Assembly (NCBI GenBank): GCA_004431415.1
Contig: QPMI01000032.1
Coordinates: forward strand, 116,251-180,250
Length of the DNA: 64,000 bases
From: Cyanophora paradoxa CCMP329
Lineage: Eukaryota; Plantae; Glaucophyta
Reading direction: 5' to 3'
Of the stretch, positions 413-22,297 are shown one piece after another. The notes beneath the pieces were generated by a model, which was not told the origin of the DNA, searched no databases, and saw only the letters and a program-made list of their open reading frames with translations. The position numbers and the translations under genes are program-made. Position 1 is the first letter of the stretch; each line of letters starts with the position of its first letter.

Positions 413-1395
413 GCTAATTTGCGATTTACTTCATTCGTTTTCGCAACTCTTATAATCCTCTTTTGATCAGGAATCTTAATAACATCAGCCTTACTCACTT
501 TCTGTAACTCGTTCTTTTTAAAACGTCTCTTAACTTCCTTTACTTCTCCATCCATATTTTCTAATACTTTGAACCTATTGTTATCTTTTGCACCAATTGT
601 ATATACTTTCTTGCTAAACCTTGCACCTTCTTTATCAAATATCCCTTTGGGCTCCAACACCCGAACAGTATCGCCTTGTTTCACATCAACTTGTTCAGTA
701 TCTTTCACTTGGTCGTTATGCACTGAATCCCGCAAGTAAATATATAGCTGCTTATGGTCACTATTATATACATTGTTTGGGGTGTCGTTCTTCAAAGAAG
801 AATGAGGGGAACTGTTGTATGTGTCTAAAACTTCTTTCACTAAATCGAGCCATTTCGAGCTTCCCTTTGCAATCATTGCCTTTCTCAGATACTGCTTAAA
901 AGAAATCGTAAATCTATCTATGATACCTAACTTGTTGCCTACCGAAATGTGGTCGTCTTTTGCTACATCTGTGTAGAGTTCCACACCATTTGCGCTGCAC
1001 CATTCACGATAAACTCTCTGTGAAAACTCATTATCTCCCGCCAATCCTACAACTTTCCCGGCATCCTGCTTAAACCTATCTAAAATGCCCTGAATTTCGG
1101 AAGACTCTTTGAAAGGATACACGAATGCTCTCCTGCTCAAAATCTCAATGAAACTAAGCGCCTCACCAATGCCTCTATTAGCTGTTTGAAATCCTCTAAA
1201 AAACATAATGTCTACTTGAAATGATCGGGGTCTCGCTACAATACGTAAAAAGCTCTTTGGTCTTTTTGGTTTCTTGAAAATCTGTTGTAGTTCCGAGTTC
1301 TCGAACTGTTTTTTTAGTTTCGCCTCGTCAAAACTTACACCTTCATTAATTAGTTTCTGCCTGTATTTCTTGTATGATAACACTGTATCCATCAC
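328..1395 (-). CDS. rve-type (retroviral-like) integrase, PLV-A
   Basis: FQVDIM, AGDNEF, GIIDRFT, YNSSPHSSLK motifs; GDTVRV...F C-terminal region typical of Polinton integrases; close homolog at 8314-9375. Confidence 0.9.
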   Translation of the reverse strand: MMDTVLSYKKYRQKLINEGVSFDEAKLKKQFENSELQQIFKKPKRPKSFLRIVARPRSFQVDIMFFRGFQTANRGIGEALSFIEILSRRAFVYPFKESSEIQGILDRFKQDAGKVVGLAGDNEFSQRVYREWCSANGVELYTDVAKDDHISVGNKLGIIDRFTISFKQYLRKAMIAKGSSKWLDLVKEVLDTYNSSPHSSLKNDTPNNVYNSDHKQLYIYLRDSVHNDQVKDTEQVDVKQGDTVRVLEPKGIFDKEGARFSKKVYTIGAKDNNRFKVLENMDGEVKEVKRRFKKNELQKVSKADVIKIPDQKRIIRVAKTNEVNRKLAKEGIKPNRKNVVRKKYNLRSKTIKQSR

Positions 1396-4300
1396 TGAGC
1401 CGCACAGTTACACTTAATATGAGAGAGGGAAATATTACCGATAACATGAGCGACCGCATTGTTTTCGCGGTCAACCGAGACCTCATCGTAATCCATAATT
1501 TGGAAGCATCGCCAACAAAGCCCATTCTGAATTCCGAATCTTTGCTTTATCCATGGATAAGTAACATACATAGATTCGACGAAATCGCGACCTGCAACCT
1601 TGTCTTGATGTTTATAACCTTGAATCAGTCTATGCATTCTTGATTTGAAAGCGCCCATATCATAAATCTCGCTTCCATCCACACAAATCACGGTGTCCTT
1701 CAAATATGGTGTCCTGGTCAGTGCGACCCACAACCAATATTTGGTGACGTGGGGCGATTGCGCCTCGAAAACAACCACCCGCTTATTTTTTACGGTGTCA
1801 CCTTGCACAACGTGACACGTATTTGCATAGGGAAGCGTGAAATGCTTGATTGAATCGTATGGAAGCGTTATTTTAATGCTTTCATCTGCGTAGTCTGAAA
1901 TCGTAAGCGTGGTTTCGTTCAGATCCTCGATGATATACGAGAATCCATTATGGATGATTACACTCTCGTCATCTGCCGTCTTCCCTTTCGTCAGGCGCTG
2001 CTTTGCTATAATTTCGAGCCCTTTAAAATGAGTTGGCGTATCTATACCATACTTAATGCGGTGGATCATAGCATTAACCTGTGCTGCTTTGCGGTTTGTG
2101 TAAGTAATAGCTCTATCGTCAGGTCGCAACTGATCAGGCGAAATAACAGGTATGTTATGCTTTGCAAGGAATGCGGATATGTCCATGTTCTTTTCGAATA
2201 AATCTTGCTTCCATTCGAGAATCTTTTCGCGATCTTCTGGCAAAATGTGGCGCTTATTCACATGCAACTCTAACAAGCTCGGGAAGAGCTGCTCAAAGAT
2301 CTCGTTATAATATTCCTTCTGATCCACACTAAGGAACTGAATAGGTGGATTTTGCAACGGGTCACCATTCAGAATGTAGGTCTTGTCAGGGTAGGCGACT
2401 TTCATCATGTGTTTCAGTGCTGCAAGCTGTGGTATGCTAAGCTGGTAGCCTTCATCCATAACAATGCATTGATAAGGTGCAATCTTGCTTGCATTCGCAC
2501 CCACAACATCATCCATTTGGGAATCATCGATTTTCAGATTGAACGCACCATGAATGGTCATCACATTCTCCAAACCATCTTCGACTTTCATTTCTTTGAC
2601 ACGCTTGTTAGTGGGCGTGATATATAAGCAACTGTCGAATTTGCCACCGATCGCCTTGCTCACATACGACTTTCCGGTTCCTGGGGCATTTCCCTCAATT
2701 CTTATGCCTTTCCCTTTGGAAAGCATCATATCACATATCGCTTTTGTGTCAAATTCATCGGGAACCGTATATGTTGTGCAATCATTCTTTCTCACAGTAA
2801 CGAAATCCCTCAGTCTCTCCGGCTTGAAGAATCGAATCATTCCATTTGTCCTCTTTGTCTCAAGCTTCTTATGTAAGATCTTATTGCAATACTCATTGAA
2901 AGATATAGGTTTCGTGCTGAAACGTCCGATATTCTCATGCTTCGTGCGATCGAATTTAACTTCTTCTACATCTAAGCTTTCGTCGATTGCCTCATAGACT
3001 GCATCAACTTTAAGAGCCATAATGACACCCTTTGATTCCCTGCACTTCTTATACAGATCCATTCGTTGTTTTGAATAGACCATATTTTGGATTGGAAGGA
3101 ATCCATCTTTTAGTAGCCTTTCTTCTATTTTCTCCACATACCAAATGTGTGGGTCTGTTATCTCGTCAGCTGCAACAATGCGATCTGGGTTTTCGTAATC
3201 TTCAATTGCATGTTCTTCTTCAATTTCGGGTTTAACCTGATTTTTCCTTTGTTTTCGTTCTTCATAAGCTTGAATCCATTTTTCGTAGTTTGAGACTTTG
3301 ATTTGAGATTCGGTTTTGGCTTCTGTGGATTGATTGGGCTTCTTCTCACCGAGCCACAGTAATTTGACGTCGCCACCATGCTTTCTGGCAAACTCGATAG
3401 CATCCGATTTTAGGAAAAACGGTTTGGTTCGCGATCTCTGATTCTTTTGTTTCCCGAGCATTCCAATAATACTTACAAGAATCTGCTTCTTCTCAGTTTC
3501 GCTAAGGTTGCTCTCTAAGATCTGTTTGATAACATATTTAACAACGTTCTTGACAATTCGATATGGTTTTAAGATGTATTTTACATCGATTATGTCTATC
3601 AGGTCATCAAAGTATTCTTTGAGCATGATCCCTGGGATCAGGTTACATGGTGAATCTATGAGAATTCGCTTTGCTTTGGGATATCTGTATTGCACCCACT
3701 CCTTTCCAGTAGAGTCCTTCTTAATAAGGTATTGTCCTTTCTTCAAAGTCACGTAGTAGAAGCTGTAAGGTTCCACATCGGCGACTGATTGTATGGACAC
3801 ATCCTTAAAGTCATCGAATTCGCTAAATACCGGGAAATACTCAAACGAATTTACGTGACCTGCATAGGCTTTGCAACCATCGTGTTCGAACATTTTCAGG
3901 CACCCATCATTCAAATCCTTAATGATTTCGGCGGAATCTTCAAAGCGACCATTTAAGGCACTCTGGGAACCGACCACGAAAGCATTTCGTGTGCTTTCGT
4001 TGTAGGAACTCTTCAAGGATCTGTTAATTAATGCTTCGTAGAACATGTTATTATATTTGGTAAATGCATCCCGCTGCTCTGAGTTCTCGAACTGCAAGTG
4101 GTAAGCTGTCTCAACTTCGACTTCTGGGCACACAGGTATAATGATGACATCCTTGTTCTGATACTTGAACCTTATGCTTTGGATGGATCCGAGAACCGAA
4201 ATTCTGGCATCAGCTATGTAATTATGCACTGTCAGGAAGGAAGCATACAATTTAGTCAGACCACCTGCACCACCGTAATTGATGCGGATAAGGTTCTTTT

Positions 4301-4554
4301 TTGTCGCCTCATCTGATTGGAGAATACCTACAATATGATCCTCATTGGCTGCGAAAAAACTACCACTGTTGTTATCGTTTCTTCTTAGCCTGTATCTGCA
4401 ACCCAACGGCATATCTTTCTCAGTAGGCTTAGATCCATTGAAAGATTGAATGAGGCTCTCAACATTATTATTGAGTAAATACATGTGTCCATTTTGAACT
4501 TTGACATACATGGTGGATGGTCGGAGGAATTTGTTCCTCGTTCTCTTTCCGTTT
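1392..4554 (-). pseudogene. 3' part of the interrupted PLV-A replication gene (PolB-like palm + SF1/RecD-like helicase + HNH-like C-terminus)
   Basis: Walker A GNAPGTGKS, Walker B IVMDE, GDPLQNPP, YANTCHVVQG, WVALTR; C-terminal CWRC...VDR...H...N...CN; colinear with the PLV-B protein. Confidence 0.88.
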
Positions 4555-4568
4555 GCATCCACAGGAAT

Positions 4569-7390
4569 TTTTTTCACAAAGCCCATATCAAGGGCGGTGG
4601 CGATTGTATTTGTTCAGTAACATCATCGTACGCACTACCGGTTCGGAATAGGCCGAACTCTGGGTCAGAGCATAACCTGAGGCCGGAACACAGGGATAGG
4701 CGCCTCGACGCTACAGCTGAGCGTTTCTCTTGTGGGGGGAGGCGTGGGAGGGGGTCGTAGGTGTGAGTGTAGACGTACAGTTGGGAGTCGTGGCGCCATG
4801 GGGGCCAAGCTTATCAGTCAGGGGAGAGCGGGGCGGGGAGGGAGGGGGGGAGGGGAGCGGCGCGGGCTAGGGTAGCGGGCGCGCCCCCCGATTTTTATTG
4901 CGTGTGGGGCGCGGGGTGGGTGTGGGCCGGGTAGGGGCTTTATCGGGTATGCCGCGGCCGCGGGGACGGGCGGTGGCGGGCGGGGTGGGCACCCTAGGAG
5001 GGTCAGGGGACAGAGGGGCGTGGCGGGGGCGCAGGCCGTGGAGCTAGTCTGTCGCAAGCGTCCGGGCCGGAGAGATGCTTAGGGAGGTGGGGCGAACCCG
5101 TAGGCGGGCAAGGCTTAATGCGAGGGCGGGTAGGGGGGTGTCATTGCTTCATGGAGCTATCTAACTCAGAGAGGAGGGCGGCGGGCTTGTCACAAGGCCC
5201 CTTTCTTCGGCAGTCATGCTACCGCAAATTGTAGAGAGAGGAAAGAGAAAGAAATCGGGGGCCGAAAGGGTAAAAGTGCCGAGAGAGGAAATTTCTACGC
5301 TGCCGCGTTGTCGGCGGCGGCCGCCCGGCGGCCGGCCAGGAGGGCCTCGATGGCGGCGGGGCCCCCGAGGGCCCAGGTGAGCTCGGCGAGCACGCGCTGG
5401 GCCGCCTGGTAGTTGGTAAGCGAGATGGTGGCCGGCCCAGGGCCGGGGGCGGGGGCCGGGCCCGGGGCGGGCGCGGGGGCGGCGGCCGGTGCCGGGGCGG
5501 CGGCGGCGGCGACGGCGGCGGCAGCGGCGGCGGCGGCAGCAGCGGCAGCGGTGGCGGCGTTGGCGGCAGCAGCGGGGGCGGCCGCGGCGGCCGCGGCGGC
5601 GGGGCGGGGGCGGCGGCACCGCCCTCGCGCTTCTTGACGGCGTCGGGGCCGAAGCGCTCGATCGCGCGCTTGTGGGACTGGGCGGCGATGTCCGCCGCGA
5701 GCTGGGCGGCCTCCTCGGGGTCTTGTCCTCGTTAAGGGCGCTGAGGCGGTTGAGCCGGCGCGCCCCCGTCGAGTGGCCGGGGCGGTAGGACGCGCGGCCA
5801 CCCCGTCGGGGTAGTTGATGCGGTGCTCCCGGGATCGAGATCTTCTTGCTGTTCTTGGTGGCCTCGAGGGCCACCGAGTCGGGGCCGCCCCCTATAGCTA
5901 TATATATGCAAATGATCATGAGCTCAAGGGCCTATATAGCTAGCTATGCGCTTGTACGCATGCAGTATATATATACCGTACGCGGACCCTGTCCTGGTTC
6001 TCTTGTTAAACGTTTAGACTCTGAGAGATTTGCATGCAAGTTCGAGCTCGAGCGAGGGTGCCCAGCTCCCTCGTGCAGTTAAAATCTTTCGAATCGCTCC
6101 ACTAGGGGGCCAAGCTTTTAAGGGCCTCCTAAAGCAGACGGGGGCCGACTTATTCGTGTGTATATCGATATCGCAGGCGCCCCTCAAGCTCGCCGACCGT
6201 ATAGGAGGCTTGCATCGCGGGGGGTGTGCAGGGGACCGGTCGCCTCGTGGGGGAGGGGCCGGCGGGCATGAGGGGCGGGCGGCGCGGGGCCTGGCAGCGA
6301 CCGCCGGGGACGCACTGCCCGCCGCTGGGAAGTCTTCGACGGAGCCGGGGATTCCGGGTCCGATAGTGGGCGAGCGCCATCAGGCTCGGACCCCACGAGG
6401 GCGGGTCCCGGCGAGGCCGGGCCCTGAGGCAGGCGAGCGCCGTCTGGCTCAGACCCCGCGGTGGTAGCTGGGCGAGCGTTTGAGTGCTCATGCGCCCGGG
6501 TAGACGTAGGGGACGTCGGCTTGCATGCCGGCGCCAGCGGCGCCAGGGGAACGATTTGCATAGGCGCCAGCGGCGCCAGCAGAGGCGGCATCACAGCTCG
6601 GGGCTCTGTCCACTGCCGCGTCTTGGGGCGCTTGCTCCGCGTCCCGCCAGAGGCCTGCGAGCGTCGCGCACGCGTCACGGAGAGCCAAGTGAGCGGGGGG
6701 GACGCGGCCCCGTGGTTCTTGAGTGTCGTGCTGGCGCGGGCGGCCCCGCGCACGGGCCGCCGGCGCCGGCGTGCTCTGTGGCCGTACGGGTCCGGCGTCA
6801 GAGTTCATAGAGGAGGGGCGCGGGCGGAGGGCGTGAGCGACGGGCGCGGGGAGGGTCCCGCATGATCGGCGGCAGCGGAGCCGGGTGCGTTGGCGGAGCC
6901 ACGCGTCCGACTGCGCGGAGTCGAGTCGAGTTGTGCGTCGTGCGCTGTGGGCGTGGGCTCAGGCGAGCCGCGCATGCGCGGGTGGCATGCGTTGGCGGGA
7001 AGGCGGGCGGAGCGAGGACGGGAGCTTAAACGGGCGTATGTTGGCTCTAGATGTTGTGGGGCGTCTCTCGGGCGCGCTCGGAGTGGCAGGAGAAGGCGGC
7101 GGGGACCGGCCCGTTTAAACACGTTACCGCGGGAGCTGGCGCGAGTCGCGGCGCCAACAGGGGCGCAGCTGCTCTTCGAGATGTCTGTGGTGTCGCTGCG
7201 GCTGTCGTTGCCCGCCCGGCGGACCTACTTTGCGCGTTCGGGCCGTGCTGGTCGTTGGGCGTCGGCGCCGCGAGTTTTGGGACCGGCCACGTGCAGTGCT
7301 AGCAGGCACCCTCGTTGGGGAAGCCCCACTGCGCCGGCTTACTCGCTCGCGGGCCTTCGCGCAATTTTCCGGGGTACCGGAATCGCGGCC
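4569..7390 (-). mobile_element. 2.8-kb GC-rich retroposed insertion (non-autonomous non-LTR-type) inside the PLV-A replication gene
   Basis: 14-bp TSD GCATCCACAGGAAT at 4555-4568 and 7391-7404; T-run at the left junction (oligo-A tail on the minus strand); abrupt GC shift; removal restores the frame SYIPVDANGKR. Confidence 0.85.
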
Positions 7391-8068
7391 GCATCCACAG
7401 GAATATAGGATAGGGCATAGTCCACTTTATCATTCTCGTCTAGTACTATCATAGAAAGCTTGTATGGCTTCAGAAATGCATCGGTAATTTGTCGTAATGA
7501 TAATCCCATATCGTCCCCATCAACAGGATCCCGACCATGCACCAATTTGAACAAGAAGGCATGATTCAGCTTGATAGAAACGTAGCGCCCATAATCTTTG
7601 GCTTTTTCAAACGCTGGTGCAAATACAGCAATGATAGCATCATGCACACATGATTTAATTCTCAATTCCTTGTTCTTTGTTTTATCAAAGAAATCACAGA
7701 ATGACTTTGAGTTAACATCAAATTCGTAAGTAAGATACTTAGATGGGATCATAGGCGCTTGATAGTCTCGTAAGATCTGGTCGATCCTGGGGATAAAGTC
7801 GTTATCGTTCTCAGGTCTTATCTTCTCGATTGTCAGGACATCACTGTAAGTGCCTGTGTGAACGTTTTTCAGATAAATTAAATCAGGGTTTCTATTACCA
7901 AACTGCATGTTTTCGAAAATGAATTGTTTGATTGCTTTTTTTTCGAAACATGGGACATTGGTAAATGGTCTGTTCATAAGATCGAGGGATTTTATGAAAA
8001 GGTCTTTCTTCAATTTAACCGAATGGAATGAACCGTCTTTTCTGTCTTTGAGAACTTGGTAGTATCTG
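7391..8068 (-). pseudogene. Middle fragment of the PLV-A replication gene
   Basis: LFKLVHGRDPVDGDDMG matches LFKMVNGRDPVEGDDWG of the PLV-B homolog; joins both neighbouring fragments in frame. Confidence 0.9.
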
Positions 8069-8073
8069 TCACC

Positions 8074-8316
8074 AGCTCAGCACTGCGCCGTGTCTCCAAA
8101 AAAATCCCCGCGAAAAAATCAAAAACAAATCAAAAACAAACCATTCCCAGTAACCCTATTCGTATTCAACAGTAATCTCAGTAAGCCTCAGTAACAAAAA
8201 TCGAATTAATCGAAGTTATATCTTAAATCTTATTTATCGAAGTTATATCATAATCTCGATTAATTATATTTAATCGAAGTTATTTCCTTTTTATCCGCCG
8301 TGTCTCCCATGATTTA
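8074..8316 (+). repeat. PLV-B left TIR (243 bp)
   Basis: Begins AGCTCAGCACTGCGCCGTGTCTCC; inverted copy at 19073-19315. Confidence 0.93.
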
Positions 8317-9375
8317 GCGTTTCGTTAAACCACTTCTCAGATTGTATCTTCTCCTTACAACATTACTTCGATTGGGTTTTATGCCTTCCTTTGCTACCAA
8401 TCGATTCACTTTATTCGTCTTATTAACCTGCTGAATTCTTTTTTGCGATGGGATCTTTATGATATCATCTTTATTCACCTTTTGCAATTCTTGCTTCTTA
8501 AATCTCCTCTTCACTTCTTTCGTTTCCTCACCATCATTATCTTCAAGCACTTTGAAACGATTCCTATCAGCCTTTGCAACAGTGTAGACCTTCTGACTGA
8601 ATTGCGCACCTTCTTTTTCAAATAACCCCTTCGGTTGCAAAACTCGAACTGTGTCTCCTGGTTTCACTTGATTAGTATCAGCCTCCTTTACACGATTGTT
8701 GTGAACAGTATCTCTCATGTAAATAAATAACTGTTTATCTTCATTTGTATACACTGCATTCGGTGAGTCATTTTTCAATGCCGAATGGGGACTGCTATTA
8801 TACAAGTCAATAACATCACTAAGTAGATCGATCCATTTCGTGGTTCCCTTTGCTGTCATCGTTTTTCTGAGATACTGTTTGAAAGTCCTAGTGAACCTAT
8901 CAATAATCCCCAGTTTATCTCCTACTGTGATGTGGTCATCCTTTGCCACATCTGTGTAAAGCATCACACCATGTTCACTGCACCAATTTCGGTATACTGC
9001 TTGGGAGAACTCATTATCCCCAGAGAGAGCATTAACTTTGCCTGCTTCTTGCTTGAACCTATTTAAAATACTCGGGATCTCACTGCTGTTTTTAAAAGGA
9101 TAAACAAATCCTTTGCGACTAAGTATGTCTACGAAACTAAGCATTTTGAAAATGCCATTGTTGGCAGTCTGAAACCCTCTGAAATATGTTATATCGATTT
9201 GAAACGATCTAGGCTTTGCCACTATGCGAAGAAACGATTTGGGTTTCCTTGGTTTCTTGTAGATTTGCTGGAGTTCTGAGTTTTTGAATTTCTTTTTCAA
9301 CTCTTTTTCATCAAAACTCACTTTTTCATTAATCAGTTTCTGCCTATACTTTTTGAATGATAATACACTATCCAT
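8314..9375 (-). CDS. rve-type integrase, PLV-B
   Basis: FQIDIT, SGDNEF, GIIDRFTRTFK, YNSSPHSALK; highly similar to 328-1395. Confidence 0.9.
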   Translation of the reverse strand: MDSVLSFKKYRQKLINEKVSFDEKELKKKFKNSELQQIYKKPRKPKSFLRIVAKPRSFQIDITYFRGFQTANNGIFKMLSFVDILSRKGFVYPFKNSSEIPSILNRFKQEAGKVNALSGDNEFSQAVYRNWCSEHGVMLYTDVAKDDHITVGDKLGIIDRFTRTFKQYLRKTMTAKGTTKWIDLLSDVIDLYNSSPHSALKNDSPNAVYTNEDKQLFIYMRDTVHNNRVKEADTNQVKPGDTVRVLQPKGLFEKEGAQFSQKVYTVAKADRNRFKVLEDNDGEETKEVKRRFKKQELQKVNKDDIIKIPSQKRIQQVNKTNKVNRLVAKEGIKPNRSNVVRRRYNLRSGLTKR

Positions 9376-12300
9376 TATTGGGCGGCGCAGTTACACTTAA
9401 TATGAGAGAGGAAACAATTTTTGGTAACGTGAGCCACAGCATTATTAATTCGATCTACCGAAATATCTTCAAAGTCCATGGCATTGTAGCATCGCAGGCA
9501 ATGCCCATACTGCTTCCCATATCGCTGCTTGATCCAATCCCATGTGATGTAATCATGCTCATCGAATTGTCTGTTTGCTGCTCGGTCCTGATCCTTGTAA
9601 GTCGATATTTTCTCGTTATTCTCTCTCTTCCACACCTTCCAGTGAGCCATTTCGAAATTATCATGGTAAATAACGACATCATCCAGCCTTGTGGTTCGTG
9701 TGAGAGCAACATAGAGCCACTTCTTTGACACAAATGGCGCCCCAGTTTCGAACACAACTACCCTGTTCCCTTTGCAGCGAATAGTATCACCTTGAACAAC
9801 ATGGCATGTGTTTGCATAAGCCAGGGCGAAATGTTTGACTGCATCCCTGCTGAGAACAATCTCATCCTTCTTGTTGGCAATGTCAGCAATAATGAAACTG
9901 TCCTTTGAGAGCTTGACAATCTTGTAGACAAATCCATTATGAACTATTTTTCCGCCCTTTGCAATACGAGTCTTTGCAACAACTTTGATGCCGCCAGCAT
10001 AAATGGAAACATTATCCCCGTAGTTCATTTTGTGAAGGGCTAGGTTCACCTCTGCACCCTTGCGGTTTGTGTAAACAATGCCAATATCAGTCTTTTCCAA
10101 TTCGTCCACAACCTTGAACCCATACTTCGCAAGGACCTCACTTACACTCAAACCTTTCTCGAACAAATCGATTCGAATCTGCTCAACCTTTCTGCGATCT
10201 TCCTCAGTCTCATGTCGCTTGTTCACTTGGAGTAACAATTCGTTGGGGAACAGGCGATGGAGAATATCGAGGTAATACTCATCTTGGTCAACACTCATAT
10301 CTTGGATGGGTGGGTTTTGGTACGGGTCCCCTGTGGCGATGTATACCTTATCTGGGAACTGCTCATTCATGATGTGGTCCAAGGCTGCCAGTTCCCCAAT
10401 CTTAAACTGACAGATCTCATCAATAACAATGCAATCAAATTCTACCAAACCAGAGGCATTTCCTCCTACAATTTCATCCATGTTTGACTCATCAATTTTA
10501 AGGTGAAGGGCATCATAGATTGTCTTTACATTTTTCAATCCTTGCTCTTTCATTTCTTTCACTCGCTTATTGGTGGGAACAATGTAGAGGGGATTTTGGA
10601 AACGCTTCCCATAATCAACTGTCATGTAAGTCTTTCCAACTCCCGGAACTACTCCGAGAAGAACCCATCGTTTTTGTGTAGCCAGCAAATCACAAATCGC
10701 GGTTGTGTCATACTCATCAACCACAGAGTGTTTGGTATAACTGTAGTTCTCGATTTTCACAAAGTCAGTCGCTCTCTCAAACTTTCCGTAACGAATTCGT
10801 TTTGCCTCGAGGTCTTTCTTCTCACCTGAAAACTTTTTAGAAAAATTGGGGCAGCATTTCACACTGAAGTTTCCAATATTCTCAAAGGCATTGCGATCGA
10901 ATGACACTGGGGCAATGGGTTCATAAGCGATCCCATAAACACAATCGGTGTTCAAAGCGAGTGGTCGGATTTGCTGTTTAGCGAGTTCGACACACTTCTC
11001 ATACATACACATCCTCATAATTGACAAGAGGGTAGTGTACAATGGCATGAAGCCATCAATGAGCTGCTTTTCTGCTACCTGATTGACATAGTAGATATGG
11101 GGTTCGGTCATCTCTTCCTCACACAGAACGAACTCTGTCTCCTCATAAGTGGCAAGAGTCTCACCAAAGAGGTAAATTTTAACCTCCCTCCGTTCTGTTT
11201 CTGGAACTCGATCGCATCGTCTCTGTTGTGGAAAATGGTGGTTTTCACTCTGCTATTTCGTTGCTTTCCAGTTTGCCCAATTGCACTCACCAAGATCTGC
11301 TTCTTATCAACAGGATCGAGGTCGCTATCTAAGATTCGAGCAACTGTGTTGCCTGCAAGGTTGGGAATGAGTTTGTAAGGTCGCAGAACCGCTTTGATGG
11401 AGATGTCATCCTTGAAATCCTCGAAATGCTTTTTGAGAACCAAACCAGGAACAACATTGTACTTGGAATCAATGATCATCCTCTTGTATCTGTTGTAGGT
11501 GTTTGCTTCGTACTCCTTTCCGTTCTTGTCTTTGGCTTTGAAAAAGTATTTGTCGTCCAGTTTCACGTAATAGAAGCTGTATTCCTCGATTTGCTCTGCA
11601 TCTGTGATTGTCACACTCTTGAAGACATCGAACTTGCTGAGAACAGGAACGAATTTGATCATCAAGGCTACAATGTAAGGGTATGCTTTGCACATATCGA
11701 ACTCGTAAATATCTGTGTTATAGCGAATTTCATCAAAGGTCTCCTCATCCACATCAAAGAGACCACGAAGGGCAGTCTGCACTCCATTCTTGAATGCATT
11801 TATGGTTTGCTCATTGTAAGTACTCTTGTTGGAAGTGTTGATTAGAGACCTATACATATCCAGATTTAGTTTCTCGAATTTATCTCTGTACTCAGCATTC
11901 TTGAAGCTAATCTCGAAAGCTGTTTCCACATCTGTATCGTTACCAGGTGGGGTCACGACAACATCCTTATCGTCAATAGTGAAACGAATATGGGTTGCCT
12001 TTCCGATTTGGGAGAACCCAGGTTGGACCTGATAATTATGCACCACAATGAACTCTCTGAGTAGTTCATCCAGTGAACCACCATAGCAGATTCGAATGCT
12101 CGATTGGTTCTTTGGATTGTCAGACCTGACAATTCTCAGAATGTCATCGGGATTTGTGGCAAACTCCTTGAACCTTCTTTGCTTTATAATCTTGTAACGA
12201 GAACTGAGTGGAACATTGGTATCTTTTGGCTTGGAGCCATTGAAGGACTGTGTGAGAGCCTTAATATTGTGATTTAACAAATACATGTGACCATTCTCAA

Positions 12301-13462
12301 TCTTCACATATGCAACAGAAGGGGTCAAGTGTGTGTTCCTGGTCTTGGGCAGGAAAGTCAGTTCAGGGACAGGGGTCCTGTCGTCCTTTCCAATTGTAAC
12401 CATGCCTAGGCGCAGTGGGTCAAGAACCTTCTCCGAAATGGACTTGAAAGAAATGCCCCAATCATCTCCTTCAACAGGGTCGCGCCCATTTACCATCTTA
12501 AAAAGTCCATTGTAAGACCAATCGATGCGCTTGTATTTCCCTTTGGTCTTAGCCTTCTCAAATGCTCCTCCAAACCATTTGATGAGGACATCGAAAACAC
12601 ACTTGCCAACCTTGAATGAGTTGCCTTTCAAGAACATTTCCCTGAATGTAGTGGCTTGGGGGTTCCCTTCGTTTTTAATGAAATTCGAAATAATCATGGG
12701 AGCGTTTGTATTGTCTCTGAGGACTTGTTCATTTCTTGGGATGTATTCTTCATTATCTGTCGTGATGACTCTTTCAATTGTCATAATATCAGGGTAGGTA
12801 TCTTGCTCAATTAGTTTTAGGTAGCGGAAATCTTGATTGTTCGAGTTAAACTCAATAACTGCTGCAATAAATTCAGCAATGACAGTCCCCTCAACACATG
12901 GGAACGTATTGAAGGTGGATTGAACCAGACCGAGAGCATTCAGAAAAGCTGCCTTGGTACACTGGATACCAAAGGGGCGATTGTTCCGAAGCCTCTTCGA
13001 TTCGATGTAGGTCACACCATTCTCAGTCACTCTGTTCGCATTTGCGGGAGCCTGTTCGCCCTCTTGCAACTCACGGAAGAGTCTCACATTCAGGGTGACC
13101 ATGTTTCCAGGTGAGTTTTCAACAAACTCACGAAGGTTAGCCATCATCTGCTGGAAAGGAGTCAATCGCTTCCGCTCCCTCGCTTGCTCTGCTTTCTTGT
13201 TTTGCTTCTCAACATTCTTAGCGGCTCTCTCAGCCCTCTTCTCCTTCTTCTCTTGCTTGCGGACCACACGAGGATTGATGATACCATTGAGAGTATCGCG
13301 AATATCAATCAATGATTGCAAGCGGAGCCTGCGGTTGATCGTCCTTTCCAAAAAGTAATTCACTTGCTCCTCGCTCAGAATTCCATGGACACTACCCTGG
13401 GTAATGTAACCAATGATCTCTTCTCTTATCTTATTTGCAATTCTGTTTCCAGGGCGAGGCAT
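9375..13462 (-). CDS. PLV-B replication protein (~1362 aa): N-domain + PolB-like palm + SF1 helicase + HNH-like tail; one frameshift at 11186-11188
   Basis: ORFs 11108-13474 and 9375-11111 join if one G is added to the GGG run (GGEVKIYLFGE vs GGDVKLLWLGE in PLV-A); DMCKAYP, KQILVSAIG, LNTDCVY; GVVPGVGKT, IVIDE, GDPYQNPP, YVALTR. Confidence 0.85.
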
Positions 13463-13703
13463 TTCTTCGTTCACTCTATTAATATATACCTACAAAAGTT
13501 TTCCTTAAATACTTTTATACTCGCGTCAATTTTTTCCGGCAAAACCAAAAGTCTCCGACAAAATAAATTTAGTCGAGGGCATTTATAAAAATAACAAAGG
13601 GTTGGCTCGATCATCGAACTCTAAAAATAACAGAATGATTTTATTTGTGGTTCCAGCGCGGTTCCCACGGGTTTCTCAGAGCAGATCGCGCTGAGAAAAA
13701 CGA

Positions 13704-13961
13704 TTAACAGACATATTTCGATTTGCGACCACGGTTAGAATACGGGACACCATAAAGATACTTCACAAAGCAGACTGCATTGGAGGCATAGAGACGCTGG
13801 GAACTCTCAACGATCTTCATGGCTCTGTAACACTCATCAGTATGGTATAAGTCACGCATTTGCTTTGCGAATCTGGCATTGTACTTTTTCAAATATTCCT
13901 GACCTTTTTCAGTTTTACGATAACGATAAGTAGCACGCTTCTGAGCCTCACTAATTGGCAT
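13704..13961 (-). CDS. Conserved ~85-aa basic protein (putative DNA-binding)
   Basis: Homologs at 19962-20216 and 48322-48576; AQKRA...NAVCFVKYLY.VPY..RGRKSK. Confidence 0.8.
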   Translation of the reverse strand: MPISEAQKRATYRYRKTEKGQEYLKKYNARFAKQMRDLYHTDECYRAMKIVESSQRLYASNAVCFVKYLYGVPYSNRGRKSKYVC

Positions 13962-14310
13962 GTTGTCCTTTTCTACTCTCTTAATATATGTTAAGAAATC
14001 TTTAAGTAGTTTTTCTGTCTGTATATAGCGAATAAACTCCTGTCAAATTTTGGTCCCGATTGCAGAGCATCCAGTACGAAAGAAGATGCTGGAAAAATGA
14101 TAAAGCTACCGATACCCAGAAGGTTCACTTGTCGGCTGCAAGTTTCTACCACTGAACCCGGTAGAACAGGTGATTAAAGTGATTTACCTATGGATATTTC
14201 ACTTCGCTCTACAACGCCTCCATAAAAATGAAGAAGTTTTGAGCCTACGGGATAGGATTGGTTACGTAGCGCTAACAATGTTCAAGATTTTTTAAATTCG
14301 GAAATGATCC

Positions 14311-15072
14311 TTAACGGCGATAACCAGGTCTAATACCAAGCTTGGCAAACCCTGAGACCATTGGGGCAGCATTTGGAATCGAGTTGACTGGATCAGCCTG
14401 CGAAGTGGCAACCCGAAGGATCGATTTATTCAGGACCGGCAAATCCGTTTTGTTGGAGTCTTGATACTCAATGGTCTTCGCAATCAATTCAGTTGGTGAA
14501 TCTTTTACGACTTGAACAGGTTCAGGAATAACTTCATGGGTTACTTCTGGTTTCTTCTCAACCTTTTCCTTTGTGATTGGCTGTTCCTTGATCTTGTTTT
14601 CGTTTTTGGTCTCTGCTGCAATACCATCAACAAGACTCTTCGCATACTGATATGTCACAGATTTCAGTCCGCCAGTGGTTGATCGAATAAAGTAACGGTT
14701 GCGATGGTCTTTCTCGGAATAGGTTGAGTAGAGTCGTTCACCACCATCAAGCAGTTTCAGCAGTGTCGATGATGAGGCAACCTTGTCCTTTGTGGATGAT
14801 TTGAACTGCCCTTTCTTGATTCCTCGTTTGGCTCCAGGCATGCGGTTCAGTGGGACTTGGTCAACCAGGGCATTATCATCGTTACTGTTTTTCGTAGTGG
14901 CTTGGGTGTATTGGTTTCGCTCTTTGTGGACTTCCTTTTCGAGGTCACCAGTTCCGTATGCAGCGATTCCCTTCGATTTCTTATACCAGTTTCTTCCGTT
15001 TTCGCCATTGCCAACATCCGCTTCAGCTGCTGGTTTGGCTAAGAAATTCTTTGGCTGAGTCTTGCGAGCCAT
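14311..15072 (-). CDS. Lys/Arg-rich protein, putative virion core protein
   Basis: Homolog at 20537-21319 (shared NALVDQVPLNRMPG and SGFAKLG motifs); lies next to the penton; function inferred. Confidence 0.6.
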   Translation of the reverse strand: MARKTQPKNFLAKPAAEADVGNGENGRNWYKKSKGIAAYGTGDLEKEVHKERNQYTQATTKNSNDDNALVDQVPLNRMPGAKRGIKKGQFKSSTKDKVASSSTLLKLLDGGERLYSTYSEKDHRNRYFIRSTTGGLKSVTYQYAKSLVDGIAAETKNENKIKEQPITKEKVEKKPEVTHEVIPEPVQVVKDSPTELIAKTIEYQDSNKTDLPVLNKSILRVATSQADPVNSIPNAAPMVSGFAKLGIRPGYRR

Positions 15073-15107
15073 TTGTAATATCGAGACAAAATTATTCTAC
15101 AGTATTT

Positions 15108-16007
15108 CTATGACCGTGAGAATGGCAGGTAGAGTCCCTCCAACTCTTTAATGACATTCTTCAATGCTTTCTTTGTCAGGTCTTTATCATCTTCAGTAAT
15201 CAGTTCGAGAGTCATTGACCAATCCGTGGTAATATCGGTTTCAGCACCATTCCAATATGTAAGACGAACTTTTAGCGTTTCAACTTCCACCAAACCATTT
15301 TGCTCATGCGTGATCATGGAATTATTCGATGAATCGTATTTTAGTAGACTGCCTACCGTTTGGTCAATCTCAATTTTTGCAAGGGCTTTATCATCGCTGG
15401 TGTTCTTGCTTACATAGTTGCCTTTGAGTGGGTCAACATGAAGAAGGATGTATGAATTAAACAGAAGATCAAGTGGTATTACACTATCAACATAATGGGT
15501 AAAAGTGACTGCTCCGACTGTAACTGTTGCATCGAGCAGATCAGAAGCGTAACCATTTTCAGAACTCTCAGGTCTGAGATCTGGGAAACCAAGGAAGTTT
15601 GCTAAGATCCGACTACCAAAGCTTAGGTTGAATGCTGCATCGCACATGAACCTTAGAAACATTGTAACGGGATCATAGGTTACTCGAAAATGGCGAGTAT
15701 AGGTTGTTCCTGCTGCACCATATGCCTGTGAAGCAAGCTTCGCATTAAGGAGATTCACTAAACTATCCGAAGTATATGTCCCTTTTGCAATGGTGTTACT
15801 CTTGGTCTTAACAGCATTCCCAGCATCATATGTGGCTGTAATCAAACTTCCATTCTCGCTGAGATTGTAAATGTTATTGAACATCTCAAAGTTAGTCACT
15901 CTGCAGGCTCTCACATTTTGAATTGCATGGGGAATTTTGTAAGTGAAGTTTGTTGGGGTTCCATCATCCCGATCCCGAGAATCAATATTAAGGTAATGAC
16001 GCGTCAT
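15108..16007 (-). CDS. Minor capsid protein (penton), PLV-B
   Basis: N-terminal YLNIDSRDR...NFTY and C-terminal LKVRLTYWNG...DWSMTLEL pattern typical of PLV/NCLDV single jelly-roll pentons. Confidence 0.8.
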   Translation of the reverse strand: MTRHYLNIDSRDRDDGTPTNFTYKIPHAIQNVRACRVTNFEMFNNIYNLSENGSLITATYDAGNAVKTKSNTIAKGTYTSDSLVNLLNAKLASQAYGAAGTTYTRHFRVTYDPVTMFLRFMCDAAFNLSFGSRILANFLGFPDLRPESSENGYASDLLDATVTVGAVTFTHYVDSVIPLDLLFNSYILLHVDPLKGNYVSKNTSDDKALAKIEIDQTVGSLLKYDSSNNSMITHEQNGLVEVETLKVRLTYWNGAETDITTDWSMTLELITEDDKDLTKKALKNVIKELEGLYLPFSRS

Positions 16008-16059
16008 TCTGTTTAATAAAGCATTTTAAAAATTTCTTTTGGTATTTTAAACATAAGAG

Positions 16060-17286
16060 ATGGCACTCACTGGAACTACCCTTAAGGAACTCCTCGTGAC
16101 TCCCGGTTCAGATCAAATTTATCTATCCCCTGGTCTCCAAATCGGAACCAACCCCAAGTACAAACCATTCCTCGAGCAAGTTCGTCCCCGAGGCAATACT
16201 TTTGGCTTTAAGAATACCGCTTACTTTGATCTACCTCGCAAGCAACTCCTTGCTGGTGTTTCCCTCTATTTCAAGATTGCCACTGGTGGTGAGGTAGCCT
16301 GCACCCTCCCCAATGGTGGTTCTTCCTTCATCAATGAGGTCCGCTTCGTTCATGGTGGTTTCAAGTATATCATCCCTGGTGATTGGATCACTGTAAACGC
16401 TCTGATCGACAATGATCATGCTACCATGGGCAGCATGTATGCTTCTCTCGGTTACTTCAAAGAACTTGATCGTGAAAGCACAGATGAGGCAATGGAATAC
16501 ATCGTTAAAATCCCGGCTGCTTTCTGGGACGATGCCTACTTCCCACTTTGCACACTGGCTGATATGCCAACAATTGAGGTGGATTTCCGTGATGCTGCGA
16601 TTGTCCAAGTTCCTGCCGGTGGATCTGTTACCTTTGCGGATTGCTCTCTGATCTGCCAATTCGTTAACATCGCTTCGGCTGAGGCTGAGACACTCTTGAA
16701 GATGGCGAACGAACAAGGTGGCATTCGCATCCCGATCACAGAGGTCATTCACAAGAAGACCCGAGCGCTCAAAACCGCTGATGCTGGTGAATCGGTTGAG
16801 GTTACACTCGCTAATGTTTCTGGTCTGGTTCACTCAATTCTGATGACTGTTCGAGAGGTGAACAAACTTAACACCTACACTCACTCAGATTTCTGTGGTC
16901 ATGAATCTGCTGTTAAAATTGATCAGTTCCAGATCTTCCACAACAATCGCTCCCTTGATATCTCCAACAAACCCATTTCCGGTTTCCTCTCGGCAATGAA
17001 TCACATTCCATCCCATTATAAGGGCGTTTCAGTTGGCAATACCACCTACGGATTCGAGTCTGGAAATGTTTACGGAATTGTTCTATCCAAATCCGGAAAG
17101 GATTCGCTCCACAACTCGGTTCTGGGTTACCAGGATTTCTTCAACAGCAGCTCCAGCTACATGGATCTCACTGTTTCGGGATGCACTGATGCTGCTCCTG
17201 TTCAGGTTGACATCTATGCCCTACGACACAATGTTATGGTCCTAAATGGCTACAACATCTCTACCCTGAAAGTCTCGAACTTCTAA
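16060..17286 (+). CDS. Major capsid protein (double jelly-roll, PLV type), PLV-B
   Basis: 408 aa; FDLPR, SSFINEVRF, YFPLCTL, terminal VDIYALRHNVMVL; sits between penton and ATPase; homolog at 22298-23521. Confidence 0.8.
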   Translation: MALTGTTLKELLVTPGSDQIYLSPGLQIGTNPKYKPFLEQVRPRGNTFGFKNTAYFDLPRKQLLAGVSLYFKIATGGEVACTLPNGGSSFINEVRFVHGGFKYIIPGDWITVNALIDNDHATMGSMYASLGYFKELDRESTDEAMEYIVKIPAAFWDDAYFPLCTLADMPTIEVDFRDAAIVQVPAGGSVTFADCSLICQFVNIASAEAETLLKMANEQGGIRIPITEVIHKKTRALKTADAGESVEVTLANVSGLVHSILMTVREVNKLNTYTHSDFCGHESAVKIDQFQIFHNNRSLDISNKPISGFLSAMNHIPSHYKGVSVGNTTYGFESGNVYGIVLSKSGKDSLHNSVLGYQDFFNSSSSYMDLTVSGCTDAAPVQVDIYALRHNVMVLNGYNISTLKVSNF

Positions 17287-17365
17287 AGTTCTTTTCTTTC
17301 GTTAGAGTAGGAAGCGCAAAATTAGTAGGTAAGGGGTTTATTTTGTTTTTTATCTTATTACTGTA

Positions 17366-18124
17366 ATGGATAACACAGTAAACTTAGATGATATACCGGA
17401 GTTTGATCCTAGCAAAACAGTTCGAATCCCAACGAGAATTTTAAATGTTGGCCGCTCCAATACAGGTAAGACAATGTTTACAAAATACTTACTTTATGAG
17501 CTTCGTGACAAGATCGATCAGATCGTAATATTTAGTTCAACAGCTTTTACTGGGCAATTCAATGACATCACCCATCCAGATAACATCTATGAGGAATGGG
17601 ATGATAACATTGTTTTGAGATTGATCAGTATGCAAAAGAAACGAATCGAGAACAATGAGAAACGAAATAACTTAGTAATCATACTCGATGACATGATAGG
17701 TTCCAATTTGGATATGCATAATTCGGCTGTGTTATCTAAATTGGTCACGAGCGGCCGCCATTATTCAATTTCTGTGATATTTAATGTTCAGCGTTTATGC
17801 TCAATTTCTACTACCATTCGTCGTAATGTGGAGTTCGTTGTATTTTTCAATATACTTGGGAATGAAAAGGAATTCAATTGCGCCTTTGATGAGTACAATG
17901 GTGGAATGGATAAGAAGACCTACAAGGAATTGCATAGACTATGGGGTTATAATTACCAAACTGTCATAGCTAGCCTGCAAGGTTATGATATCAAGACCTA
18001 TACTGATAGAGCAGTACTAACAGATGATGATATAAAGGGCTTTAAGAAGTTTCTTAAGAGAAAAGCAATTAAAAGGAGTCAGATGGCTCGGATTCAGCGA
18101 GAAATGACCACAATCAGTGTGTGA
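17366..18124 (+). CDS. A32-like genome packaging ATPase, PLV-B
   Basis: Walker A GRSNTGKT, Walker B VIILDD, SGRHY motif, STTIRRN. Confidence 0.92.
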   Translation: MDNTVNLDDIPEFDPSKTVRIPTRILNVGRSNTGKTMFTKYLLYELRDKIDQIVIFSSTAFTGQFNDITHPDNIYEEWDDNIVLRLISMQKKRIENNEKRNNLVIILDDMIGSNLDMHNSAVLSKLVTSGRHYSISVIFNVQRLCSISTTIRRNVEFVVFFNILGNEKEFNCAFDEYNGGMDKKTYKELHRLWGYNYQTVIASLQGYDIKTYTDRAVLTDDDIKGFKKFLKRKAIKRSQMARIQREMTTISV

Positions 18125-18389
18125 AAGGTCGTTATTTGAGAACTAGTGTATGGCAAGGTAGCTTGAAATAATGAGATGATTATGTAGTTGCGTAGAGCTT
18201 AACAAGCGCTTCAAAAAGCTATGCAGAACGTCGCGAGTTGATAATCTGGTGATGAGATAGAAGCGTTTGAAGATGCCGATAATCGATTTACCGAAACTTC
18301 GGTGAAACTTCGACGTGTGATAAACACAGTGTGATTTAAATCACAGGGGGGGGGAAAGGTTTTAGTCACAGGTGATACAAATCACAGGG

Positions 18390-18660
18390 TGGTTTATACC
18401 ACGAATTATGTTTTAGCTAGTGGTTTCTACCACGAATTATAATTAAGCTAGTGGTTTCTACCACGAATTATAATTAAGCTAGTGGTTTCTACCACGAATT
18501 AGTGGTTTAAAGCACGAATTAAGTTTTAATTTGTGGTTTCAAGCACGAATTAAGTTTTAATTTGTGGTTTCAAGCACGAATTAAGTTTTAATTTGTGGTT
18601 TCAAGCACGAATTAAGTTTTAATTTGTGGTTTCAAGCACGAATTAGTGATTGAAAGCACG
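18390..18660. repeat. Tandem array of 31-bp units (two variants) in the PLV-B subterminal region
   Basis: CCACGAATTATAATTAAGCTAGTGGTTTCTA about 3x, then AGCACGAATTAAGTTTTAATTTGTGGTTTCA 4x. Confidence 0.9.
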
Positions 18661-19072
18661 CGTGATAAAAAGCACGCGTGATAAAAAGCACACCAATCAG
18701 ATTGCGTCACACATTGCGTCACAATACATCATGACAATATACACATCGCCGTGATCGTCATAATCTCCCGAGTCACGTGGTATGTCATATATATCATATA
18801 CATATACATCGTCATCATGACGTCATATATATCACATATACACAAATTGATATGTTATAGGTTTTACCATAAATCGTTTTTCTATGATATATATCATATA
18901 TACTATATTGATATATTGACGTATATACGATTAAAAAGCATTTTCACTTCTATTGTTTTTATTGTCGTTTCTATCGTTGTTTCTAGTGTAGAAAATACAG
19001 TGAAAAACCGTTTGAAAAATACAGTAAAAAATGAGAGGTTTTTCAAACGAAGTTTAAACTGAAATCACTTTG

Positions 19073-19315
19073 TAAATCATGGGAGACACGGCGGATAAAA
19101 AGGATATAACTTCGATTAAATATAATTAATCGAGATTATGATATAACTTCGATAAATAAGATTTAAGATATAACTTCGATTAATTCGATTTTTGTTACTG
19201 GGGCTTACTGAGATTACTGTTGAATAGGAATAGGGTTACTGGGAATGGTTTGTTTTTGATTTGTTTTTGATTTTTTCGCGGGTATTTTTTTGGAGACACG
19301 GCGCAGTGCTGAGCT
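19073..19315 (-). repeat. PLV-B right TIR
   Basis: Reverse complement of 8074-8316. Confidence 0.93.
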
Positions 19316-19755
19316 TCACCCCATTCTTCCACAACCCTAACGTTTTTGGGGGCTTTTGTCACAATCAACCGATACATACGAAAATACATAGTCACAGTGT
19401 CGCCCTCTAAATTCTCGATTTTCTCTTTTAGATTTTTCATCAGCTTCTGGAACCGGCTAATATGTGTCTTGGTGTTGCGTTGCGGGCGCTGGTCTGTTAG
19501 TTCCTGGGGAACGTCGATAGCACCCAATCTTTGGAACTCATCCCCCACCTCGCGCTTTGTAAGGTTATTCTCGTAAATTCCCTTTGCTGTGTCATTCCAA
19601 TCTTTTGCCGTTTTTAACGTAATTCGCCTGGCTATCGCATTGAGAATAAGGTTAGCTTGCTCTGTTGTCATCAATCCATGAACAAGACTCATAGTAGTGT
19701 AACCAATAGTGTCTTCATTAAGCTTTCTGATCAACCGGTTGGAAGGGCGAGGCAT
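19316..19755 (-). pseudogene. 5' fragment of the PLV-A replication gene
   Basis: MPRPSNRLIRK matches MPRPGNRIANK of PLV-B; reads in frame into 8068 after PLV-B is removed (EEWGDRYYQVLKDRK). Confidence 0.9.
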
Positions 19756-19961
19756 CTCGTTGCGTTCTTATATATATCCAAAGAAAATTATCCTTAAATC
19801 ATTTTTTCAGTTCTGCGTCATTTTTTGCCCGACGGAAATTTCACAAAAATAACAAAAGGGTTGGCTCGATAAACAAGCTCGAAAAATAACACGAAAGCAT
19901 TTTTTATTTAGCGCGGTTGCGCATTCGTTTCCTCAGCTTCAATCGCGCCGAGAAAAAGGAT

Positions 19962-20216
19962 TTAGATATACTTAGATGGGCGACCGACATTATTATAGGG
20001 AACGCCAAACAAGAATTTCACGAAACAAATCGCATTGTTTGAATACGCACGGTGACTTGCTTGAACGATTTTCATTGAGCGATAGCAATCATCAGATTGA
20101 TAAAGCTCGTAAACCTTTTTTCGCATTTTTTCCTTGTTCTTTTGAAGCGCAATTTTGCCTTTCCCGGTAGCCCGGTAATTAGCATTTGCACGCTTCTGAG
20201 CCGCACTTGTCGTCAT
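19962..20216 (-). CDS. Conserved ~85-aa basic protein, PLV-A
   Basis: Homolog of 13704-13961 in the syntenic position. Confidence 0.8.
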   Translation of the reverse strand: MTTSAAQKRANANYRATGKGKIALQKNKEKMRKKVYELYQSDDCYRSMKIVQASHRAYSNNAICFVKFLFGVPYNNVGRPSKYI

Positions 20217-20536
20217 TCTCTCAACCTCTGCTACTATATAGCAAGAAATCTTTAAATGATTTTCTTCTTTGATATACCTTTTTTCAGAACGTAATCATTT
20301 TTTGACCCCTACAACCGGTAGAAGCTACAAAAATAAGCGAAAGGTGCCCCGATGCCCGATGCGTGGCTGACTTGTCGGGGGCGCCCAAGTTTCTACCAAT
20401 GAACCCGGTAGAACAGGTGTTAAACGAAATGCACATGGATCCTACGAAAAAAAGGATAAAATGCGCGAGCACTCATCTACGAGAAAGGTTCTTGTTACGT
20501 AGCGCTACTATTGGGCGAGAAAATAATAAGGTCGGC

Positions 20537-21319: not shown

Positions 21320-21348
21320 TGATTCTTAATTTAGGGTGCGATATTAAT

Positions 21349-22245: not shown

Positions 22246-22297
22246 TTGTGTTCGTTACTATCCGTGTATAAATTATTTTGTTCACGATTAGTAAACA

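Follow-up and report, generated by a model that had tools for sequence, protein, structure and literature searches.

Two related elements, one nested within the other

Analysis of the window, that is, the whole stretch of 64,000 nucleotides, revealed a polinton-like element of 11,242 bp with seven genes (element B, 8074..19315). It sits nested inside the replication gene of element A (76..25509), which carries the same seven genes in identical order and spans 11,351 bp once its two insertions are subtracted. A size of about 11.3 kb had been proposed in an earlier sequence-only reading of this DNA and was reproduced for both elements. The inverted repeats of B are 243 nt long and 98% alike, with a 5-bp target duplication flanking the element, and those of A are 337 nt long and identical (100%), with a 6-bp target duplication. 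Terminal inverted repeats, target-site duplications and an rve integrase are therefore all present in both elements, the rve matches lying below the Pfam cut-off. Read contigs of two runs joined 8068 to 19316 without B, the shorter side of the junction measuring just 23-25 letters. The other insertion, a GC-rich 2.8-kb repeat (4569..7404) with a 14-bp target duplication, lies between the vOTU Cys and His codons of A and was skipped by the contig of one run, with a shorter side of 51 letters.

On the minus strand of B, the rve integrase (8314..9375; Pfam rve_3 E 0.004 and rve E 0.01, neither reaching the curated cut-off) shares one base of its start with the stop of the replication gene. The same strand encodes a small basic ORF of 85 aa (13704..13961) common to B, A and a third element, a protein of 253 aa (14311..15072) also found in A and with no Pfam match, and a likely minor capsid protein of 299 aa (15108..16007), again with no Pfam match, which we take to be such from its motif and position. 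Encoded on the plus strand is a protein (16060..17286) whose Atlas look-alikes score 0.98 at a low recognition score; the look-alike clusters carry Capsid_N on 18% of members and Capsid_NCLDV on 13% (range quoted 10-18%), and the Pfam scan of the window's proteins gave no capsid match. It is followed by an A32-type packaging ATPase (17366..18124, plus strand), found in both elements (Pox_A32 E 1e-15 in B and 1e-10 in A).

A canonical pPolB (PF03175, E 1e-13) with the DTD motif is present in the third element (29447-55104), alongside a PrimPol-D5 helicase. Other viral polymerase genes thus exist in this genome. The earlier claim that the genomes of the elements encode no other polymerase or primase holds for B, where none was found among the seven virus-like genes.

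Modules and conservation of the replication protein

The replication gene of B (9375..13462, minus strand) comprises 1,362 codons and is interrupted by a one-base frameshift near 11185-11190. In all three DNA runs the covering contig lacks this frameshift, which probably reflects a slip in the assembly; a fourth run, presumed to be RNA, did not cover the site. A reading of B as a pseudogene was rejected on the contigs of the DNA runs. The homologous gene of A, of 1,426 codons, is split into a main piece (1392..4554, minus strand) that encodes the vOTU His, palm, helicase and tail, and upstream pieces at 7391-8068 and 19316-19755. Both protein lengths agree with those previously deduced (1362 and 1426 aa).

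In B, the protein begins with a variable region of about 275 aa (12640..13462, minus strand, as are all modules below), in the position of the terminal-protein-like domain of the architecture described in PMC11161782; a comparison with 72 homologs gave nothing significant for it (best E 0.18). A likely vOTU cysteine protease follows (12275..12601), with its Cys in CVFDV (12601) and its His in GHMYLL (12289). Cys and His were conserved in 60/60 and 61/61 of the homologs with a residue at the respective site, at the published position, and the region gave a weak profile match to that of canonical pPolBs (P 0.074) with the Cys in register. The presence of this dyad, intact here and overlooked in the sequence-only reading, makes the earlier description of a four-module protein an undercount by at least one module.

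Between the protease and the palm, what is likely the remnant of an exonuclease domain, its catalytic acids not conserved, was placed at 11850..12200, approximate limits mapped from A. The structural match to phi29 polymerase begins in this part, pairing residue 5 of the chain with residue 73 of the model, and no invariant acidic column was found in model residues 60-200 of the aligned homologs. Profile comparison of the canonical exonuclease with the pre-palm region gave no match (P 0.48), so the evidence for a remnant is one structural range. The earlier observation that exonuclease motifs are unrecognisable was borne out in the sense that a functional proofreading exonuclease is lacking, while a structural remnant is likely.

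Downstream of the palm, an SF1B helicase of Pif1/RecD2/Dda type occupies approximately 9620..10720 (Walker A 10646-10629, Walker B 10421-10407; Pfam AAA_19 E 3e-7; profile to Pif1 E 1e-21). The protein ends in a likely HNH-type nuclease tail (9378..9620) with the pattern CxxC ... D-R-x6-H-x3-N ... HxxC (9500-9390). This motif is kept in about 50 of the 52 tail-bearing homologs, and one of 36 scanned homologs carries a GIY-YIG tail instead. The tail had no Pfam match, its profile reached PacI at E 0.87 only, and a PDB search with it alone returned chance matches only.

The PolB palm with fingers (10866..11833) was delimited by conservation, fold and profile alignment. It contains motif A (FDMCKAYP, 11701-11678), motif B (KKQILVSAIG, 11305-11276) and motif C (LNTDCVY, 10955-10935), and the counterparts of motifs A and C in element A are HDGCKAYA (3884-3861) and LKVDAVY (3014-2994), also on the minus strand. 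All motifs named previously were found at their place in both proteins. The palm of A additionally carries a charged insertion of about 50 aa.

Conservation was evaluated on 72 homolog hits, of which seven under 400 aa were left unaligned and 65 were aligned (P0067 was also kept out of the tree). These homologs are 20-27% identical to A and were retrieved with the same region, a bias favouring conservation. The named motifs are the most conserved palm columns: the motif-A Asp is present in 62/63, the motif-B Lys in 65/65, the second motif-C Asp in 64/64 and the steric-gate Tyr in 60/63, with just one other acidic palm column above 90%. Survival of both aspartates in the two copies, as formerly proposed, therefore extends across the homologs. 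On the other side, the first motif-C Asp is lost (Asp in 1/64), the motif-B Tyr occurs in none of the 65, and no KxY-like residue is conserved after Gly554 in the alignment. The motif-B Asn is replaced by Val in both A and B, with the Lys and Gly remaining, and is missing in 13 of the 14 rows of their subclade. No Pfam PolB match was obtained for the A and B replication proteins or for 36 homologs.

Among 5,509 candidates, a word-based search with the palm of A retrieved none. An alignment-based search gave seven matches, six of them generic helicases. A Volvox record is the only named sequence relative; no relatives were found in viral contigs, metagenome contigs or phage records.

Comparison of the window with the read contigs revealed at least 32 synonymous and at least six non-synonymous codon differences in the B gene, and at least nine and at least five, respectively, in the palm of A. 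At the level of sequence, these data indicate that one genome holds two intact versions, A and B, which have diverged while purifying selection acted on them. Such selection cannot tell a catalytic from a structural use of the palm.

Predicted structure and relation to known polymerases

The C-terminal 1,064 aa of the protein of A, encoded by the main piece, were folded with a pLDDT of 84.9 and a pTM of 0.83, in comparison with a pLDDT of 31 for the single-sequence fold. The model matched phi29 polymerase (1xhx) with Z 12.6 and rmsd 5.1 over 358 aligned residues, so that a palm fold is indeed predicted; 1xhx was the sole polymerase among the best 50 matches listed, and Pif1/Dda helicases reached Z values of up to 26.5 (7bil). 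The three key residues (motif-A Asp, motif-B Lys and second motif-C Asp) fall in segments with a pLDDT of 92-96, and as in PolB they are found at the end of a strand, on a helix and in the turn of a hairpin. Insertions occupy the places of TPR1 and TPR2, both spanned by the phi29 match. The match stops at chain residue 500, and a thumb therefore appears to be absent. In the profile comparison, motifs B and C fell in register with canonical pPolB (P 0.0024 vs 0.81 for the reversed control), at a probability of only 12%. Foldseek against the PDB returned helicases only among the matches listed because the helicase domain fills the list, and the top viral structure match, H6WBE3 (999 aa, 978 columns, E 7e-29), stood far above helicase-only matches. 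A chance origin of the motifs was rejected by both conservation and fold.

Altogether, the A/B gene is a further example of the known pPolB-S1H family, also termed Tlr1-like helicases, of PLVs, Tetrahymena Tlr1 and transpovirons (PMC5499653, PMC11161782), whose design and predicted activity have already been published. The family name, the vOTU protease upstream and the HNH or GIY-YIG tail were reported in PMC11161782. Shared traits, compared through published descriptions of the Tlr1 and transpoviron proteins, are the order palm-SF1B helicase, here with a likely vOTU ahead of it and a likely HNH tail behind it (HNH or GIY-YIG in the family), within 1,000-1,400 aa, the retention of motifs A and B and of the vOTU Cys and His, the loss of the first motif-C Asp, the absence of motif 4 and of an intact exonuclease, and the activity predicted in 2024 (PMC11161782). 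A and B differ in the Val replacing the motif-B Asn, A in its palm insertion, and both in the likely exonuclease remnant, which the available text of PMC11161782 mentions for mavirus but not for Tlr1-like proteins.

At the level of whole elements, A and B resemble Tlr1 and the pMVRE group 2/3 elements (PMC13215967) in their terminal inverted repeats, rve integrase, A32 ATPase and likely capsid proteins, in a truncated pPolB that retains the palm and is fused to an SF1 helicase, and in the lack of a maturation protease gene. They differ in size, their 11.2-11.4 kb and seven genes lying below the 14-40 kb usually quoted. A record minimum size was nevertheless rejected, since the supplement of PMC13215967 includes similar spans, with at least six group-2 rows of 10.2-10.9 kb, given as spans only, without gene content.

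phi29 DNA polymerase shares with A and B the palm and fingers fold, the motif-A Asp with a Tyr five residues on, the motif-B Lys and the second motif-C Asp, whereas A and B are devoid of proofreading acids, an apparent thumb, KxY and YxDTD, and carry a fused helicase. In the piPolB of pipolins the first motif-C Asp is likewise replaced and the enzyme is active with the second alone, but it has an active exonuclease, a KTRG motif and no helicase, and is self-priming (PMC5695915). The OmPLV protein also joins an SF1 helicase and a pPolB in about 1,500 aa, although in the opposite order, with a full exonuclease and, according to PMC12721341, an independent origin. Canonical Polinton/Maverick elements differ from A and B in encoding a full pPolB, complete with an exonuclease and the DTD motif.

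Predicted activity of the palm

On sequence and model evidence, the palm is likely active. We assign a probability of about 0.62 to the reading in which this Tlr1-like pPolB-S1H fusion, with its likely vOTU, phi29-type palm, Pif1-type helicase and likely HNH tail, is a predicted active, non-proofreading replicase. Of the "active, unusual replicase" proposed earlier, activity is favoured, as a prediction, by conservation, fold and the synonymous excess; the qualification as unusual was dropped, because both aspartates occur in almost every homolog and are the family norm rather than special to these elements. Following PMC11161782, the vOTU dyad would release the N-terminal part, which would then serve at the terminal inverted repeats as a protein primer, and the palm would add nucleotides through the motif-A Asp and the second motif-C Asp. 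We infer that the helicase, 5'-to-3' if Pif1-like, would travel along the displaced strand while the palm follows the template, both heading the same way, and would supply the strand separation and DNA grip that thumb and exonuclease give phi29. Insertion of the linear copy would fall to the integrase, in line with the 5-6 bp target duplications, and its packaging to capsid and ATPase.

A palm without catalytic activity, retained to bind DNA or protein as a scaffold for the helicase, is improbable. This 2016 reading was founded on the missing first motif-C Asp and motif 4 (PMC5499653), both of which are absent here too, and the subclade has additionally lost the motif-B Asn; there would, however, be no evident reason for two metal ligands and a dNTP-binding Lys to stay near-invariant at such low identity. 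The same authors have also withdrawn the claim: Krupovic et al. (2024) predict active palms with the same argument as ours (PMC11161782), so the "inactivated pPolB" background of the sequence-only reading reflects the 2016 paper alone. Somewhat less improbable, though still unlikely, is a palm active for initiation only, adding the first nucleotides on the terminal protein or short primers while a host or helper polymerase elongates behind the helicase. This would fit catalytic residues that are invariant while the duplex-holding parts (thumb, KxY, exonuclease) appear to be missing, a co-resident element with a full pPolB and PrimPol-D5, and the proposal that transpovirons depend on the helper's replication machinery (PMC7031253). 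However, the model retains the insertions at the TPR1 and TPR2 sites, TPR2 conferring processivity in phi29 (PMC11161782), and its pTM would suggest that palm and helicase are fixed relative to each other, as would be expected for a complex in motion.

We propose only tentatively that the A/B subclade is among the most stripped-down replicative PolBs, without proofreading, thumb, KxY and motif-B Asn/Tyr and with one motif-C Asp. It might be processive only through towing by the fused 5'-to-3' helicase, and a single protein would then see to priming, unwinding and copying for an autonomous seven-gene 11.3-kb virus.

Whether pPolB-S1H proteins polymerise decides if many PLVs, Tlr1 elements and transpovirons are self-replicating or helper-dependent, and our literature search found no biochemical test of it. 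The question was not opened by this locus, which is one of many possible substrates and offers no unique way in. Its additions are the counts over 65 homologs, a confident model and two diverged intact versions in one genome, and the subclade, with its further-eroded motif B, represents a stringent test case for activity.

Elements A and B and their replication gene

Three low-GC elements with GC-rich flanks were found in the window. Element B (8074-19315; inverted repeats of 243 nt, 5-bp target duplication) is inserted in the replication gene of the related element A (76-25509; inverted repeats of 337 nt, 6-bp target duplication), which is also interrupted in the likely protease domain by a GC-rich repeat of 2.8 kb (4569-7404; 14-bp target duplication) without a long ORF. 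The element size of about 11.3 kb proposed in the sequence-only reading agreed with the values obtained, 11,242 bp for B and 11,351 bp for A net of both insertions. The insertion of B in A was bridged by contigs in both of two DNA runs, with a shorter side of 23-25 letters, below the 31-letter rule, and the GC-rich insertion in one of two, with a shorter side of 51 letters; since contigs bridge both, uninterrupted copies of A probably exist. The 2.8-kb repeat showed numerous variant contigs, and parts of it occurred in a putative RNA run.

A and B agree in gene content and gene order, with seven genes each: an rve integrase, the replication gene, two small ORFs, a likely minor capsid, a likely major capsid (67% identical between A and B) and an A32 ATPase. 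The stop of the replication gene and the start of the integrase share one base in A (1390-1394) and B (9373-9377), which may be a sign of coupled translation. In the rve integrases (8314-9375 in B, 328-1392 in A) the third catalytic position, usually Glu, is apparently Asp (motif IIDRFT). The interval separating the ATPase gene from the right terminal repeat contains tandem repeats, with units of 31 bp and 16 bp in B (18389-18691) and of 21 bp in A (24579-24667).

The predicted protein lengths of 1,362 and 1,426 aa were reproduced, and all of the motifs named earlier were found in both proteins; the module list had overlooked a Cys/His dyad upstream of the palm. In the window, the reading frame of B's replication gene (9375-13462, minus strand) is broken by a one-base shift that lies between motifs B and C; the covering contig in each of the three DNA runs lacks this shift, which is thus most likely an assembly slip. 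Where listed differences separate the window from read contigs, the palm of A has 9 synonymous codons against 5 non-synonymous ones (P 0.002, measured against a rough 25% expectation) and the replication gene of B 32 against 6, the counts being drawn from 40 of 110 rows, and 28 of 40 listed of 453. A single contig, for which the list over 2775-3845 is complete at 16 differences, has 9 synonymous and 6 non-synonymous codons, none of them at the motif-B Lys367 or the motif-C Asp528. Purifying selection acts on the replication gene, a finding that does not in itself imply catalysis. A 1,515-nt contig from a run guessed to be RNA matched motif B over 48 bases (11202-11249) with dissimilar flanks on both sides, possibly reflecting another family member, this match being too short to judge.

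Residue conservation and structure model

A search with the palm region of A and an E limit of 0.001 retrieved 72 proteins, of which the 65 homologs longer than 600 aa, 20-27% identical to A, were aligned. The survival of both catalytic aspartates, claimed from A and B, extended to the homologs, with Asp in motif A in 62/63 and the second Asp of motif C in 64/64, homologs being counted where they have a residue at the position. In addition, a Tyr five residues past the motif-A Asp was present in 60/63 and the motif-B Lys in 65/65. At the position of the first motif-C Asp, one of 64 homologs has Asp, and 60 have Lys, Asn, Arg or His. The motif-B Tyr is found in none of the 65 and the motif-B Asn in 51; in a clade of 14 rows that includes A (FastTree support 0.946; midpoint root, P0067 excluded), Asn is changed to Val or Leu in 13. 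Retrieval by the palm region favours conservation there; outside the query, the dyad Cys (60/60) and the Walker A Lys (64/64) were also invariant. The dyad His was kept in 61/61. Among 36 homologs scanned, none matched a Pfam PolB model at E 0.01 and one had a GIY-YIG tail. The tails of A (1421-1407) and B (9404-9390) have His where homologs have the third zinc-binding Cys (51/52). Their putative nuclease motif, with Arg directly past the Asp and a conserved His eight residues on, resembles the arrangement in PacI, to which the tail matched at E 0.87 only.

The C-terminal 1,064 residues of A, folded with the alignment, gave a model with pLDDT 84.9 and pTM 0.83, in which Asp236 (motif A) lies at a strand end, a long helix carries Lys367 and a hairpin turn holds Asp528; all three residues fall in blocks of pLDDT 92-96. 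When 48,161 PDB representatives were searched, the helicase part matched Pif1 (Z 26.5), Dda (Z 24.7) and RecD2 (Z 24.1). The comparison with phi29 polymerase suggested beforehand gave a match: model residues 73-573 matched residues 5-500 of 1xhx (Z 12.6, rmsd 5.1, 358 aligned), the sole polymerase among the best 50 PDB matches listed. The exonuclease of phi29 polymerase spans approximately residues 1-189 and its thumb follows residue 530 or so; at least 47 of the aligned pairs must therefore belong to the exonuclease domain, and the thumb is left without any. The model thus suggests that an exonuclease remnant is present and the thumb absent. A profile comparison gave no support for the remnant (P 0.48), and the putative remnant region contains no invariant acidic residue. 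In a profile alignment with a canonical pPolB set, motifs B and C coincided with their counterparts at P 0.0024 and a probability of 12%, against P 0.81 for a reversed control. The best viral structure match was H6WBE3 (978 columns, E 7e-29).

Possible roles of the palm

Palm-SF1 helicase fusions with HNH or GIY-YIG tails were described in 2016 as inactivated (Krupovic, Yutin, Koonin; PMC5499653). Krupovic et al. 2024 (PMC11161782) modelled such proteins, found a vOTU domain with conserved Cys and His, noted that the Asp lost from the fusions is also missing in active enzymes, predicted DNAP activity and renamed the family pPolB-S1H. Wei et al. 2026 (PMC13215967) report 358 complete TIR-bounded elements, many with the fusion and including spans of 10-12 kb, and polB-SF1 appears as a routine PLV replication module in a 2026 preprint (10.64898/2026.06.19.733378); further related sources are PMC12721341, 10.64898/2026.10.13.758929, PMC10120064 and PMC7031253. 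Architecture and fold, rather than direct alignment to a named member, place the A and B proteins in what is probably this known family. The activity anticipated in the sequence-only reading is likely; as a new idea it does not stand, both architecture and prediction being already in print. No biochemical test of the family was found in the literature searched, which left most subscription journals outside.

We favour, with a probability of about 0.62, that the protein is the element's own non-proofreading replicase, its modules being anatomically present and their activities predicted. The vOTU dyad would free an N-terminal primer protein and the palm would polymerise using the two aspartates, while the helicase would move 5'-to-3' along the displaced strand at the pace of the palm, its travel substituting for the grip of thumb and exonuclease. 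Alternatively, the palm might serve initiation only, with a host or helper polymerase elongating; the missing duplex-binding parts and the full pPolB encoded by the neighbouring third element speak for this reading, which we nevertheless hold to be unlikely. That the palm is a dead scaffold appears more improbable still; piPolB, which like the palms of A and B lacks the first motif-C Asp, is active with the second alone (PMC5695915). A bolder reading, less likely than not, is that of a minimal polymerase that has no thumb and is towed by its helicase, in a subclade whose motif B has eroded.

The third element and other repeats

The third element (29447-55104; about 25.7 kb, inverted repeats of 164 nt) encodes two replication systems, a canonical pPolB with a vOTU-like dyad and an Endonuclease_7 insert, and a PrimPol-D5 helicase. 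It also carries genes for rve, patatin and AdoMet decarboxylase, together with a fibre-like gene that includes a Peptidase_S74 chaperone. A small ORF (70% identical) and two stretches of non-coding DNA (86% and 87%) are common to B and this otherwise unrelated element (13690-14014, 18192-18302 and 18737-18826 in B; 48307-48626, 54268-54378 and 54427-54516 in the third element), which suggests exchange between co-resident families. Finally, a GC-rich unit is present in two copies (59774-61366 and 62404-64000) that are 95% identical, with small indels in single-base runs consistent with a noisy long-read assembly.
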